From contig JBGSJJ010000003.1 in NCBI GenBank assembly GCA_041742075.1, forward strand, positions 1-40,486: 40,486 nucleotides of DNA, in the 5' to 3' direction. Below the pieces are notes generated by a model. That model was not told where the DNA came from, made no database searches, and saw only the letters and a list, made by a program, of their open reading frames with translations. The translations under genes and the position numbers were made by a program. Below, piece by piece: positions 15,315 through 17,941 of the stretch. Numbering within the stretch: the stretch's first letter is position 1; each line of letters starts with the position of its first letter. This DNA is from Minisyncoccia bacterium (lineage in GTDB: Bacteria; Patescibacteriota; Minisyncoccia; Phycocordibacterales; UBA918).

Positions 15315-16022
15315 ATGGTTTCAACGCACTTTGCAATCGCATTTTTAGGCGGACTTATTCCAGCTTTGTTTTGGCTTTGGTTCTGGCTTCGTGAAGACCG
15401 TGAGAAACCAGAATCCTATCTCTTGATTGCTTTGGCTTTTATCGGTGGCATGATGGTGGTTCCGATTGCGTTACCCCTTCAACAACTTGCCCTCCAAGCC
15501 TACAGTGGCGACAACCTGGTCTTGGTGTGGGTCACCATAGAGGAAGTGCTCAAGTATAGTGCTGCCTTACTGATTATTCTCTGGAACAACGCGGTTGATG
15601 AACCAATCGATGTCATTATTTACATGATAGCCGTGGCGCTTGGCTTCGCTGCGCTTGAAAATACCTTATTTATCTTCAATGCGCTTGACGCGACTGGTAC
15701 CGCGAGCTCGCTTGTAACCGGAAAACTACGATTTGTCGGCGCTACCCTTCTCCATGTTTTGGCCTCAGGAACAGTTGGTGCCTGTGTTGCATTCGCTTTT
15801 TATAAGTCAAAAACCGCTATGGTCTTAGCGGGTTGTCTGGGGTTATGCCTAGCTGTCGTGTTGCATGCACTGTTTAACTTTTTTATAATGGAAGGAAGCG
15901 GAGAAACCATCTTAGGTGTCTTCCTCTTTGTCTGGATGGGCATCATTGTCCTGTTGCTCATCTTTGAAAAGATAAAAATACTCGAAGTCCATCACGTAAG
16001 ACCACCTAGTACATCATTATGA
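15315..16022 (+). CDS. PrsW-family intramembrane metalloprotease
   Basis: DREKPE, IEEVLK, ALGFAALEN, LLH and LHALFN motifs; multi-TM. Confidence 0.9.
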   Translation: MVSTHFAIAFLGGLIPALFWLWFWLREDREKPESYLLIALAFIGGMMVVPIALPLQQLALQAYSGDNLVLVWVTIEEVLKYSAALLIILWNNAVDEPIDVIIYMIAVALGFAALENTLFIFNALDATGTASSLVTGKLRFVGATLLHVLASGTVGACVAFAFYKSKTAMVLAGCLGLCLAVVLHALFNFFIMEGSGETILGVFLFVWMGIIVLLLIFEKIKILEVHHVRPPSTSL

Positions 16023-16531
16023 AAAAAACATCATTCCTCGAACGCCTCACCGGCGCCGTAACTATGAACAAGTACGACGAAGTACTTGCTGACGATCACG
16101 AGTTCTCAGAAGAAGAACCTCGAGCCAAACAAGCCTACGAGGAAGAGTCAGAGTGGCACGGAGGCCAAGACTATGAAGAAGAACCCCAAGAAGGCGAACT
16201 GCCAGTTGACATGTACCACACGGGTGACGCTATCGTGATTAGAGCGTTGGTTGCGGGAGTACCGCCAGAAGACCTTGATATTGCTATCACACGGGACATG
16301 GTGACTATAAAAGGTATTCGTGAAGAATACCAAGAAACTGGTACTGATGACTACTACCACCGCGAGCTGTTTTGGGGTAGTTTCACTCGAACCCTCGTTT
16401 TACCTGAAGAAGTTATTATCGATGAAGCTGAAGCGCACGAGAAGCACGGCATGCTTGAGATTAGGCTCCCTAAAGTTGATAAGGATCGCAGTACGAGACT
16501 CAAAGTTCGCTCCAACCTCCAGCCAAAGTAA
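16019..16531 (+). CDS. Hsp20/alpha-crystallin small heat-shock protein
   Basis: PVDMY, WGSFTRTLVLP, HGMLEIRLPK. ATGA overlap with the PrsW gene. Confidence 0.93.
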   Translation: MKKTSFLERLTGAVTMNKYDEVLADDHEFSEEEPRAKQAYEEESEWHGGQDYEEEPQEGELPVDMYHTGDAIVIRALVAGVPPEDLDIAITRDMVTIKGIREEYQETGTDDYYHRELFWGSFTRTLVLPEEVIIDEAEAHEKHGMLEIRLPKVDKDRSTRLKVRSNLQPK

Positions 16532-16535
16532 AAAA

Positions 16536-16563
16536 CAAACGACCCCAAGGTGGGGTCGTTTTC
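16536..16563. terminator. Terminator hairpin
   Basis: AAACGACCCCA-AGG-TGGGGTCGTTT. Confidence 0.8.
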
Positions 16564-16580
16564 GTTATGCTTTAAGTATT

Positions 16581-16890
16581 TTGGAGCAGGCTCGGTCATG
16601 AATCACAAGTTTCCTCTTTCTCTTCTTACAGAAGCTGTACACCATTGTGCGCAGGCACAGTACTTCCCAAGCACCGCATATGCAAACTATGAGTAAGGCT
16701 CGGTCACAAGTTACTAAGCATAATTGTTCGCTTCACTCCAATTCTGCTAAGTACTTTCGACCCCGGCTCGACTGTTGCTAAAGCAACATGTCTGCGCCCT
16801 TCGAGCCTGCACGTACTGTGCGCAGGCACAGTACTTCCCAAGCACTGCATATGCAAAAAGCCGCCTATGGGCGGCTTTTTGCATATGCAG
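16581..16890 (-). repeat. Array of alternating-orientation tRNA-Phe 3'-end copies with structured repeat copy 3 (16702-16798) and a degenerate copy (16594-16609)
   Basis: CGAGCCTGCTCC(C)AA pieces in both orientations; duplicated TGTGCGCAGGCACAGTACTTCCCAAGCAC; long palindrome 16837-16898. Confidence 0.8.
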
Positions 16891-16963
16891 TGCTTGGGAG
16901 CAGGCTCGAACTGCTGACCCTTCCCTCTTCAGGGGAATGCTCTACCAACTGAGCTACCCAAGC
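16891..16963 (-). tRNA. tRNA-Phe(GAA)
   Basis: GCTTGGG/CCCAAGC acceptor, TTCCC-CTGAAGA-GGGAA anticodon arm, GTTCGAG T-loop. Confidence 0.95.
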
Positions 16964-17011
16964 AAATGAGTACATAAGAATTAGATTTTAATCTCATTCT
17001 TACTGTGCGAA

Positions 17012-17118
17012 TGCAGCTTGGGAAAGATTCCTCTTACCAAGCAAACGAAGAACAGTGGGCAAGCTGGCTTGTACACTGGTTCTGAGTGCAGCTTGGGGAA
17101 GCTTTGCTTACCAAGCAA
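17012..17118. repeat. Two short direct repeats resembling the tRNA-Phe acceptor ends
   Basis: TGCAGCTTGGG-N10-CTTACCAAGCAA at 17012-17044, and the same with N9 at 17087-17118. Confidence 0.7.
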
Positions 17119-17189
17119 GTGACGTGCCAACTTGTTCATCCAACGTGCCAGCTATTGTACCTGTTTTTGGTCTTTTTTCAATGCCACTA

Positions 17190-17474
17190 TTACAAGCCTC
17201 GGTATAAGTCCACCACACCTTGTAACTGCTCAAGATCAACCATACCTCCGGTGCTTTGCGTACTGCTAGAGCCTGACACAAGCCCTAAATAAGGGCTAAG
17301 AAAGTAGTAGAATAAAATAAACGGCAACCCCAGCATCAGTGCGTATAAAGCTACTTTAAACCAAAAGGCTATCCGTGCATCACGAATCATTTTCTTTAGC
17401 ATTTGGTTATTCTCTTCTAAGAGCACATTGTTCGCACGTGCAATTTCTAGAAGCGATGCATGATCTTCTGGCAT
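17190..17474 (-). CDS. Small hypothetical membrane protein
   Basis: Coiled-coil LLEENNQMLKKM followed by a TM helix; TG-t-TACAAT upstream. Confidence 0.8.
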   Translation of the reverse strand: MPEDHASLLEIARANNVLLEENNQMLKKMIRDARIAFWFKVALYALMLGLPFILFYYFLSPYLGLVSGSSSTQSTGGMVDLEQLQGVVDLYRGL

Positions 17475-17603
17475 ATTCCTACTATTGTAACAGATTATTG
17501 GTTTTATGGGGCTCTAGGAATCGAATCCTACAGATTCCAGTACTTGATTGGAATTTGTGAACCTATGCATATTCTTGGGGTCAAGTTGCTAATTATATTG
17601 TTT

Positions 17604-17710
17604 GGTCACGAATCACTAGGTATATCTTTTGCTTCGCTTCAAATCTACCAAGTGTTCTCGACCCCACCTCGCGGTTTTTGCTCTTTGGTGAGCAAAAACA
17701 TCGCTGCGGT
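17604..17710 (-). repeat. Structured repeat, copy 4 (downstream of tRNA-Arg)
   Basis: ACCGCAGCGATG-hairpin-CGCGAGGTGGGGTCGAGAACACTT...AGTGATTCGTGACC. Confidence 0.85.
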
Positions 17711-17758
17711 TCACAAACGCGAAAATCCTGACGCAGGTCAGGATTTTTAGCGCCTTTG

Positions 17759-17830
17759 TGCCCTCACCCGGAATCGAACCAGGATCTTCTCCTTAGGACG
17801 GAGTAGCTCTATCCATTGAGCTATGAGGGC
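17759..17830 (-). tRNA. tRNA-Arg(CCT)
   Basis: GCCCTCA/TGAGGGC acceptor, anticodon loop GTCCTAA, GGTTCGATTCC; terminator hairpin at 17711-17758. Confidence 0.93.
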
Positions 17831-17849
17831 AATTTGACTATTATTACAT

Positions 17850-17941
17850 TCCTGAACCCGGAATCGAACCATGGTAATACAGTCCCCCAGACTGTATTAC
17901 TCCCGCGGACGGAGTAGCTCTATCCACTCCGCTATGAGGGC
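17850..17941 (-). pseudogene. Degenerate tandem copy of tRNA-Arg with a hairpin insertion
   Basis: Same 5' half and T-arm as 17759-17830. Loop reads GTCCGCG, an 11-bp hairpin occupies 17874-17900, and the acceptor 3' strand no longer pairs well. Confidence 0.75.

Follow-up and report, generated by a model that had tools for sequence, protein, structure and literature searches.

The stretch of DNA considered here is positions 1 to 40,486 of contig JBGSJJ010000003.1 from a Minisyncoccia bacterium of the Patescibacteria (assembly GCA_041742075.1), and these 40,486 nt are referred to below as the window. On its minus strand, the gene for tRNA-Phe is followed by an array in which copies of the tRNA's own 3′ end alternate in orientation around a structured core. 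The array consists of an intact unit and a decayed one, both belonging to a lineage-wide family of structured elements, carried by an order of Patescibacteria and tied to the 3′ ends of tRNA and transfer-messenger RNA (tmRNA) genes. The family has no Rfam match and was not found described, and no known mobile element or RNA family accounts for the pattern. The source genome is G000, and C-numbers denote its contigs. A valyl-tRNA synthetase encoded in the window falls among clusters labelled Minisyncoccota, a label for the Patescibacteria. Ordered as they are read on the minus strand, the pieces of the locus are as follows.

16891-16963, minus strand: tRNA-Phe (GAA), Rfam RF00005 at 67.2 bits against a gathering score of 29, called by ARAGORN at 16890-16963; CCA is not encoded
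16836-16899, both strands: perfect palindrome, arms 16836-16865 and 16870-16899 of 30 nt each, 100% complementary, around a 4-nt loop
16836-16844, minus strand: antisense copy of the acceptor 3′ strand, TGCTTGGGA, the outer end of the palindrome's right arm
16811-16835, minus strand: 25-nt hairpin module, GTACTGTGC-CTGC-GCACAGTAC plus flanking letters, with a 9-bp stem and a CUGC loop
16800-16810, minus strand: antisense T-stem 3′ strand and T-loop, GCAGGCTCGAA, 11/11 complementary to 16900-16910, stopping opposite T54
16703-16799, minus strand: intact structured core of type 1, about 97 nt, the best match to the covariance model R1 (115.9 bits)
16697-16702, minus strand: truncated sense arm CGAGCC (tRNA positions 56-61), which closes unit 1; the junction AGGCTCGGTCA is present twice
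16646-16686, minus strand: second copy of palindrome end, antisense acceptor and hairpin, 41 nt, 98% against 16817-16857, which opens the decayed unit 2
16595-16640, minus strand: what is left of two kinds of core: GTACAGCTTCTGTAAGAAG, from the type-2 module with its UGUAA-loop hairpin, and AACTTGTGATTCATGAC, the 3′ end of a type-1 core
16581-16594, minus strand: sense copy CGAGCCTGCTCCAA of tRNA-Phe positions 56-69, the distal direct repeat; 16575-16594 (20 nt) match 16889-16908 at 85% identity

The tRNA itself belongs to RF00005, lying above the gathering threshold with the anticodon GAA called by ARAGORN. Behind it, the palindrome is a terminator-like hairpin stretched outward through the trailer into the tRNA-Phe acceptor 3′ strand; because its left arm starts inside the tRNA, its right arm finishes as an antisense copy of the acceptor. 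The hairpin at 16811-16835, a member of an order-wide family (..GTGCCTGCGCAC..), separates the acceptor and T parts of that antisense copy. Unit 1 (16697-16844) is a covarying core with antisense and sense copies of the tRNA-Phe end that break at T54 and C56, and it fits the proposed new family, in which each unit is composed of a structured core, a left antisense copy of the last ~20 nt of the tRNA (to T54) and a right sense copy (from about C56 to the 3′ end). Cores are about 65-110 nt long and of several types, most of them capped by a GA-[mini-hairpin]-GAA loop. The left copy is often interrupted at the acceptor/T-stem junction by a conserved CUGC-loop hairpin, and as a rule it makes up the outer part of a long palindrome built around the terminator-like hairpin behind the tRNA. 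At tRNA-Phe this palindrome is perfect, whereas the sense copies are truncated or 85% identical. Between 16532 and 16889 there is no open reading frame (ORF) with a family match, and the type-2 module represented by the remnant in unit 2 has 17 matches in the genome at ≤4 mismatches. The original prediction for this locus had described sense and antisense copies alternating with the structured element at the turns, and had set this apart from the direct duplications left by integrases. The alternation was recovered piece by piece, with palindrome arms of 30 nt rather than the 29 first given. Unlike a plain att duplication, the locus has an extra inverted copy of the tRNA end, and an integrase lies neither inside nor beside the units.

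The same arrangement recurs through the genome, which is assembled in 16 contigs of 995,925 bases (99.87% complete, approximately 45-48% G+C) and holds 43 tRNAs and one tmRNA by ARAGORN. At these 44 loci, exact matches of at least 10 nt to the gene's own T54-N73 segment were sought within 450 nt downstream. Sense copies were found at 18/44 loci (a few of these matches being neighbouring paralogous tRNA genes, from Arg CCG to Arg CCT and between two Gln TTG genes), antisense copies at 16/44 and both at 12/44. When tRNAs were paired with mismatched loci, both arms were found in 12 of 1892 pairs, and the 450 nt upstream held a sense copy at two and an antisense copy at one of the 44 loci. The tmRNA locus (C13:24316-24710) has the layout seen at tRNA-Phe, including the hairpin that splits the antisense copy. 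The original prediction had staked itself on T-loop-anchored inverted copies at other tRNA loci, and many tRNA and tmRNA loci carry them. Searching with the core, nhmmer returned 16 matches in the genome, and R1 returned 27 copies at E ≤1. Nineteen of these 27 follow a tRNA or tmRNA on the same strand at a distance of 36-260 nt, where random placement gives 1.6%, and the remaining eight have no upstream tRNA. Core orientation tracks that of the tRNA, as in two cores 3 kb apart on contig C4, one on the minus strand (C4:4387-4443) and one on the plus strand (C4:7404-7532). From this opposite arrangement it follows that orientation is set by the gene and not by the replication fork, and a model confined to the lagging-strand template was rejected because neighbouring cores are opposite and each follows its own tRNA.

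Four of the eight cores without an upstream tRNA (C13:68658-68783, C10:7188-7320, C16:59017-59237 and C11:57753-57868) stand directly behind the genes for the ribosomal proteins L2, L7/L12 and S9 and for FtsZ, on the same strand and without tRNA-derived arms, and these positions suggest that cores occupy the 3′ ends of highly expressed genes generally. In the ribosomal-protein operon, the gap between S19 and L2 (C13:67045-68846) measures 1.8 kb and holds two small opposite-strand ORFs together with a core, which is unusual there. Most tRNA genes of this genome lack an encoded CCA and continue instead with C and an A-rich trailer; this trailer provides the left arm of a palindrome resembling a terminator hairpin.

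The core has a conserved structure of its own. In the RNAalifold consensus of nine type-1 cores from this genome there are 31 pairs, 25 of them with compensatory changes. Across 61 copies (53 loci of other genomes, in an alignment that is fitted to R1 and thus biased toward the structure), 94.7% of cells are paired, as compared with 69.9% for shuffled partners and 29-38.5% for slid partners, and 29 of the 31 pairs vary on both sides. G-U and U-G occupy 53 cells versus 23 for A-C and C-A (41 versus 14 when the closing stem is left out), an excess by which the structure reads best on the tRNA-sense strand. From its ends inward, the core consists of the closing stem P0, made by the arms, a stem P1 (GCC/GGC), a conserved internal loop (G-GAG.. 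/ ..CGAG), a variable hairpin P2 and a long hairpin P3 (CACU-U-AGUA-G-AUUUG .. CAAAU-A-UACU-U-AGUG). P3 is capped by GA-[N-Y-G-N-A-R-N']-GAA, which in the intact tRNA-Phe core is a GA-[GYGNARC]-GAA loop. The 7-mer of this cap (ACGAAGT, GCGAAGC, GTGAAAC and similar) is present in 42 of 78 copies, with the triloop GAA in 26, GCA in 7, GTA in 7 and GGA in 2. A 2026 review describes mini-hairpins of the GCGNAGC type, which gain far greater stability in DNA than in RNA, as present at single-strand initiation sites (PMC13037366). Other core types have the same cap, for example the type-2 module (GUACWG-stem-UGUAA-stem), and the hairpins that split the antisense copies likewise form conserved families, with either a CUGC loop (..GTGCCTGCGCAC.., GCAAGCAAACTGCTTTGCTTGC) or a CUGGGAG loop. 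Unpaired core letters are conserved, and cores without tRNA-derived arms still have a closing stem. In 11 strictly defined units, the insert measures 64-112 nt with a median of 99 nt, and copies within a genome have a mean column identity of 60%. The conserved internal loops show that the core is more than a by-product of copying. Rfam 15, searched at gathering and E-value thresholds, returned no family for the core: only tRNAs match in the window; over 16500-17800 the Rfam search gave only spurious miRNA and leader matches, which fall on the palindrome, and the orphan copies match nothing. A regular-expression scan for core motifs was too noisy to use.

Of 121 genomes taken from the whole order, with close to one from each family, R1 matches 96 at E ≤0.001, leaving 25 in which this search finds no type-1 core. 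Copy number runs from 1 to 30 per genome, reaching 25 under stricter filters and 30 in genome G122 under laxer ones. A phylum-wide draw of 151 genomes produced just four matching genomes outside the order, and R1 matched none of five genomes from other orders of the same class. In five genomes from five families, 29 of the 30 best matches are preceded within 600 nt by a tRNA or tmRNA on the same strand, and their arms match it. The four out-of-order genomes have the same layout, the sense arm reaching exactly CCA where the tRNA genes encode CCA. A single family of cores is found behind 17 or more types of tRNA. As for viruses, phage records match only the tRNA part, and a single IMG/VR contig holds the core motif. 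No description of tRNA-linked inverted copies or of the element was found in the open-access and bioRxiv literature.

The arms are local and their breakpoints recur. Across the 11 strictly defined units of the source genome and its relatives, the antisense arm ends at or opposite position 53-54 in ten, and the sense arm starts at position 56 in seven (range 54-58) and ends at 75-77 in seven. Arms track tRNA sequence variants across relatives, and palindromes at several loci extend across the trailers. At tRNAs whose acceptor strands do not mirror each other exactly, the left arm is mostly the complement of the 3′ strand (both units of tRNA-Ala TGC, both units of tRNA-Trp, and L052), with the exception of one tRNA-Ala GGC unit that keeps G3 of the tRNA's G3-U70 pair; informative cases for this comparison are few and the results mixed.

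There is turnover of units from one related species to another, and they also accumulate in tandem arrays and decay. In congeners, tRNA-Phe is followed by other cores and hairpins, by several units, or by a plain terminator alone (L033, L036, L037 and L049). Orthology between L042 and L043 covers the terminator and the antisense arm (62 identities in the first 70 aligned letters), the cores diverging beyond TCGAAAGAC, while L035 and L039 hold the whole unit in common at ~80% identity. In G122, one core stands behind tRNA-Arg(TCT) and another behind tRNA-Met, and the two are 98% identical over a block bounded by the T-loop-derived GAATCGAA and GTGACCGA; the hairpins and the arms or flanks around this block are unrelated, and the tRNA-Met arms are decayed. 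Tandem arrays, and direct repeats on either side of a core of a permuted block that runs from 3′ end and terminator to antisense arm and hairpin, are seen at L044, L092 and L065. In a quick maximum-likelihood tree of 78 cores (8 nt trimmed per end, ~100 columns), cores cluster by genome and not by tRNA type: the genome label needs 29 changes as compared with 31-42 (mean 37.7) over 300 label shuffles, a clustering that tandem copies inflate, and the tRNA-type label needs 38 as compared with 35-43 (mean 39.5).

The surrounding DNA carries the following features.

17154-17181, minus strand: promoter-like site TTGAAA-16-TACAAT, by consensus match only (10/12), upstream of the whole array
16970-17122, minus strand: two ~75-nt tandem degenerate minihelix copies of tRNA-Phe (repeat spacings 79, 74 and 75)
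16527-16561, minus strand: sole canonical intrinsic terminator, 11-bp stem and T-run, after the whole array and common to the convergent Hsp20 gene
16019-16531: Hsp20 gene (Pfam HSP20), convergent with the array

Sites resembling TTGAAA..TACAAT also precede tRNA-Phe in relatives. The inner hairpin of the palindrome (GCCGCC-CATA-GGCGGC) is followed by TTTTT, a T-run that is paired in the extended palindrome, and the terminator scan called only the site after the array, at 16537-16561. A read-through RNA has a predicted fold of -184.2 kcal/mol (z = -9.85), in which the T-loop-to-3′ end of the tRNA pairs with the antisense copy; the opposite strand gives z = -10.1, as palindromes would. The pairing of a read-through transcript with the tRNA's own 3′ end, which the original prediction had proposed, is thus also what folding predicts. 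Such a transcript would trap the T-loop-to-3′ end of the tRNA in a modelled helix of ~41 bp.

Several further observations concern the neighbourhood. Each minihelix at 16970-17122 has a 5′ leader, the acceptor 5′ strand, a short loop with GCAAAGC, the acceptor 3′ strand and TGCA, and these apparent pseudo-copies stand between the promoter-like site and tRNA-Phe. Farther upstream on the same strand, at 17849-17940, ARAGORN calls a 92-nt tRNA-Arg(CCG) that Rfam does not call at its gathering score; it stands in tandem with tRNA-Arg(CCT) (17758-17830), of which it is a copy at 85% similarity. This tRNA-Arg(CCG) carries a 27-nt extra arm (..ACAGTC-TGGGG-GACTGT..) in its variable region, resembling the hairpin module of the tRNA-Lys(TTT) unit on C4 (downstream of 25053), and a mismatched acceptor 3′ strand, features by which it is likely a decaying duplicate. 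The window contains three more type-1 cores: two in tandem at the contig start, 109-237 and 254-363 on the plus strand, upstream of an ORF at 519-1160, and one at 17596-17722 on the minus strand behind tRNA-Arg(CCT), whose closing stem is non-tRNA (GTTTG/CAAAC). On the 14-kb contig C8, which may be an integrated or mobile element, three tRNA-Ser genes have similar flanks, and at C8:10173-10260 a tRNA-Ser(GCT) is followed by an ORF that by eye starts like a serine recombinase.

Taken together, we see about an even chance that these units are a lineage-wide, proliferating hairpin element, attached to tRNA ends via the T-loop by copying of DNA that folds back or switches template. The arms would be made by fold-back or template-switch synthesis around hairpin-prone modules at the turns; that this takes place in DNA is suggested by the mirror symmetry through functionless trailers and by left arms that are mostly the complement of the 3′ strand. 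The near-universal and partly palindromic T-loop sequence TTCGA would serve as the switch point or microhomology, and a switch there would let cores move, exchange or convert between tRNA loci, with the arms remaining those of each locus. Within the palindrome, intrastrand templating could hold the antisense arm in step with the selected tRNA even as the sense arm degenerates. The core itself appears to be under selection, given its conserved internal loops and fixed orientation, and is probably a binding site for a putative protein on the tRNA-sense strand, either as read-through RNA or as single-stranded DNA. A more specific and more tentative proposal is that a small structured core homes in on the T-loops of tRNA and tmRNA genes, where the target serves as fresh template for its closing stem, yielding one inverted and one direct copy of the last ~20 nt. 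Re-templating of this kind would leave the tRNA intact and tailor each copy, as a hairpin or a tRNA-shaped RNA, to the gene that hosts it, perhaps by host replication and repair alone. Known inversions by fold-back or template switching and quasipalindrome correction share with the units the forward-inverted-forward order, the hairpins at the turns and perfect palindromes over functionless sequence; those, however, are sporadic mutations, whereas here the arrangement recurs at most tRNA genes across an order and always with a conserved core. Copying anchored at the T-loop had been suggested in the original prediction, and the locus-specific arms, the breakpoints at 53-54 and 56, the palindromic trailers and the exchanged cores are consistent with it.

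A number of observations weigh against this reading. No enzyme tied to the element was found in searches for reverse transcriptases, TnpB, tyrosine recombinases and Y1 proteins, and neither a recent insertion nor an empty-site pair nor an intermediate came to light. The 60% mean column identity of copies in one genome is a rather wide divergence, not what a recent burst would leave, and the clustering of cores by genome could reflect gene conversion instead of movement. The position of the hairpin exactly at the acceptor/T junction of the cloverleaf, together with the G3-U70 kept in a tRNA-Ala GGC unit, fits an origin by tRNA copying or selection on RNA. Compensatory changes in arms that are templated by DNA are no proof of a selected structure, and the preponderance of G-U over A-C could come from strand-biased mutation. 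Presence of Y1 genes does not go with presence of the element (75 against 96 of the 121 genomes), and genomes with 8-15 copies lack Y1. Finally, the conserved loops, the fixed orientation, the single terminator after the array, the promoter-like site upstream and the predicted pairing all point toward a role at the RNA level.

Such a role is the basis of an alternative that we regard as possible though somewhat doubtful, in which the unit is a host-functional RNA, either a tRNA-scaffolded small RNA or a cis-acting 3′-trailer element, with the core as a protein- or ligand-binding domain. The tRNA-like ends might be presented to RNase P, 3′-end processing and CCA addition, or the antisense arm might toggle the tRNA 3′ end against the sense arm and thereby control the maturation or decay of a read-through precursor. 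Such an RNA would explain the strict co-orientation with the upstream gene, which extends to all four orphans checked (L2, L7/L12, S9 and FtsZ), and the fact that 29/30 cores lie on the tRNA strand when symmetric arms do not fix core orientation. It is also in keeping with the conserved unpaired letters, with G-U exceeding A-C, with the closing stem of arm-less cores, with a topology equal to a cloverleaf in which positions 8-48 are swapped for one hairpin, with a sense arm that stops at the mature tRNA 3′ end (encoded CCA included), with the placement of the canonical terminator only beyond the array, and with the retention of ~1% of a streamlined 1 Mb genome as units. However, the type-1 core is missing from 25/121 genomes of the order, copy number varies from 1 to 30, units at orthologous tRNAs differ among congeners, and decayed remnants are common. 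The T-loop, a feature recognised by tRNA enzymes, is moreover absent from the mimic, exact mirroring of trailer and T-loop letters is unnecessary for RNA processing, and a terminator-like hairpin usually stands between tRNA and unit. Established tRNA-like RNAs (the tRNA-like domain of tmRNA, YrlA and engineered scaffolds) do resemble the units in having an acceptor/T-stem helix with a genuine tRNA 3′ end, and the primer-binding sites of retroelements resemble them in an antisense arm of ~18-21 nt complementary to the same tRNA stretch; here, though, the core replaces the T-loop, the arms come from the neighbouring gene and not from a fixed tRNA, and no reverse transcriptase (PF00078), as a retron or a retroelement with a tRNA primer-binding site would have, was found in the 99.87%-complete genome. 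Degenerate tandem duplicates of tRNA genes, which we consider quite unlikely, would instead make the left arm a relic of the old acceptor and T-stem 5′ strands, with the D and anticodon arms lost and hairpins later colonising variable-loop and T-loop positions. The two minihelix pseudo-copies with their 5′ leader, the decaying look and variable-region hairpin of tRNA-Arg(CCG) at 17849-17940 and the G3 of one tRNA-Ala unit are what such duplicates would leave behind. Nevertheless, the left arm is the complement of the T-loop and not a T-loop, it is mirrored together with the trailer about the terminator loop, it is mostly 3′-strand complement (tRNA-Ala TGC, tRNA-Trp and L052, against the one tRNA-Ala GGC unit), and no D- or anticodon-arm remnants were seen in units at the loci read. 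Chance similarity or an assembly artefact has a negligible probability. Assemblers can create palindromes, and of the Logan contigs that reproduce the locus, those of X1 (14.5 kb, over 15800-16965) and X2 (15800-16919), each with 0 differences, are not fully independent because these are perhaps the source samples; a contig of X3 also covers 16661-16843 with 0 differences. The same architecture in dozens of other genomes, and in over 100 altogether, excludes a local artefact, which the original prediction had named as a hazard, a perfect 30-bp inverted repeat is unexpected by chance in 40 kb, and the arm, placement and covariation controls speak in the same direction.

Mobilisation as DNA by a known type of enzyme offers two further accounts. 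One, which we judge unlikely, is a single-stranded DNA element similar to REPINs or to miniature inverted-repeat transposable elements (MITEs), moved by an HUH enzyme (Y1, RAYT-like) that recognises the core hairpins and acts on the tRNA-sense strand. The genome encodes a RAYT-like Y1 protein of 230 aa with HUH and Tyr motifs (C10:13742-14434, minus strand, which is L107:1240-1932), and Y1 genes occur in 75/121 genomes of the order, often in several copies (those of 220-260 aa in up to 13 per genome). The apical G-Y-GNA-R-C mini-hairpin of 42/78 copies is of the type with much higher stability in DNA than in RNA that occurs at single-strand initiation sites (PMC13037366), and location at the 3′ ends of genes is a habit of REP and BIME sequences as well. 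Those sequences, like REPINs with RAYTs, are short hairpin extragenic repeats maintained for long at the 3′ ends of highly expressed genes. Yet REPINs and derivatives of IS200/IS605 have constant ends and no inverted or target-derived copy, and the RAYT-like gene has a different repeat, GCGAAGGGTGGCC, in ~7 near-exact genome copies. It is flanked by its own palindrome with 21-bp arms (ACAAAGGGCCACCCTTCGCAA/TTGCGAAGGGTGGCCCTTTGT), neither the core nor the hairpin modules being present in its flanks. By tally, ~64/96 core-positive and ~11/25 core-negative genomes have Y1, and two complete genomes, G025 with 8 cores and G074 with 15, have none. The opposite cores 3 kb apart on C4 also argue against it, as orientation goes by gene and not by fork. 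We rejected the RAYT-like Y1 protein as the mobiliser on account of its distinct repeat and the lack of co-occurrence with the core. Bacterial MITEs (Correia/NEMIS, RUP, ERIC and RPE) are equally small, non-autonomous and multi-copy, form long hairpins when transcribed and are often co-transcribed with neighbours. They have, however, constant terminal inverted repeats and short direct target duplications, while the inverted arms here are copied from the target; constant terminal inverted repeats were not found, the closing arms varying and matching the local tRNA. An omega-RNA of the IS200/IS605 kind is disfavoured by the lack of any TnpB (PF07282) match in the genome, and the one match to an IS110 DEDD recombinase is sub-threshold (22.1 bits against a cut-off of 29). 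The other account, very unlikely in our view, regards the units as relics of site-specific integration, in which an attP copying the tRNA 3′ end integrated at the T-loop, attL and attR remained and the rest decayed. The direct repeat from T-loop to tRNA 3′ end expected of an att duplication is there (16575-16594 against 16889-16908 at 85%, and a sense copy at 18/44 loci), and integrative elements of tRNA and tmRNA genes likewise duplicate the T-loop-to-3′ segment, leave the tRNA intact, target tmRNA and form arrays at one tRNA. Williams, in 2002, reportedly distinguished classes of att sublocation within tRNA genes. In contrast to such elements, the units measure merely 150-300 bp, have an extra inverted target copy that integration leaves unexplained, and lack an integrase in or beside them, so that the repeats are without the integrase of a genomic island; the only tyrosine recombinases of the genome are two Xer-like ones (C4:71853 and C16:84785), neither adjoining a unit. 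Cores are also not specific to a tRNA type, one family with local arms serving the at least 17 types, and viral records are limited to the single IMG/VR contig with the core motif and the phage matches to tRNA. Classical tRNA-specific attP lineages were rejected because cores do not cluster by tRNA type. The attC sites of integrons and the attP of CTX phage resemble the units as imperfect hairpins of 60-140 nt, with strand-specific activity in the known systems, structure conserved above sequence, a closing stem that ends in boxes resembling ..AAC/GTT.. and cassette-like arrays. They differ in that the primary sequence of the present core is conserved, the units hold no gene cassettes or ORFs, and the integron integrase model TIGR02249 gave 135 and 53 bits against a cut-off of 265, both Xer-like recombinases staying below it.

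If the element family is what it appears to be, then an order of ultra-small Patescibacteria spends ~1% of its streamlined genomes on an undescribed element tied to tRNA, tmRNA and highly expressed genes. Its long perfect palindromes and duplicated tRNA ends will confuse assemblers, finders of tRNAs and att sites, and prophage predictors in genomes of the candidate phyla radiation. The core would be a new conserved nucleic-acid structure, with 31 covarying pairs and no Rfam family, and the units would provide a natural case of the universal T-loop acting as a hotspot for recombination or template switching. They would represent either a new way for selfish DNA to exploit essential genes while leaving them intact or an as yet undescribed level of control over tRNA precursors, and homing to the T-loop with a re-templated stem would be a mechanism of copying or mobility without a described counterpart.

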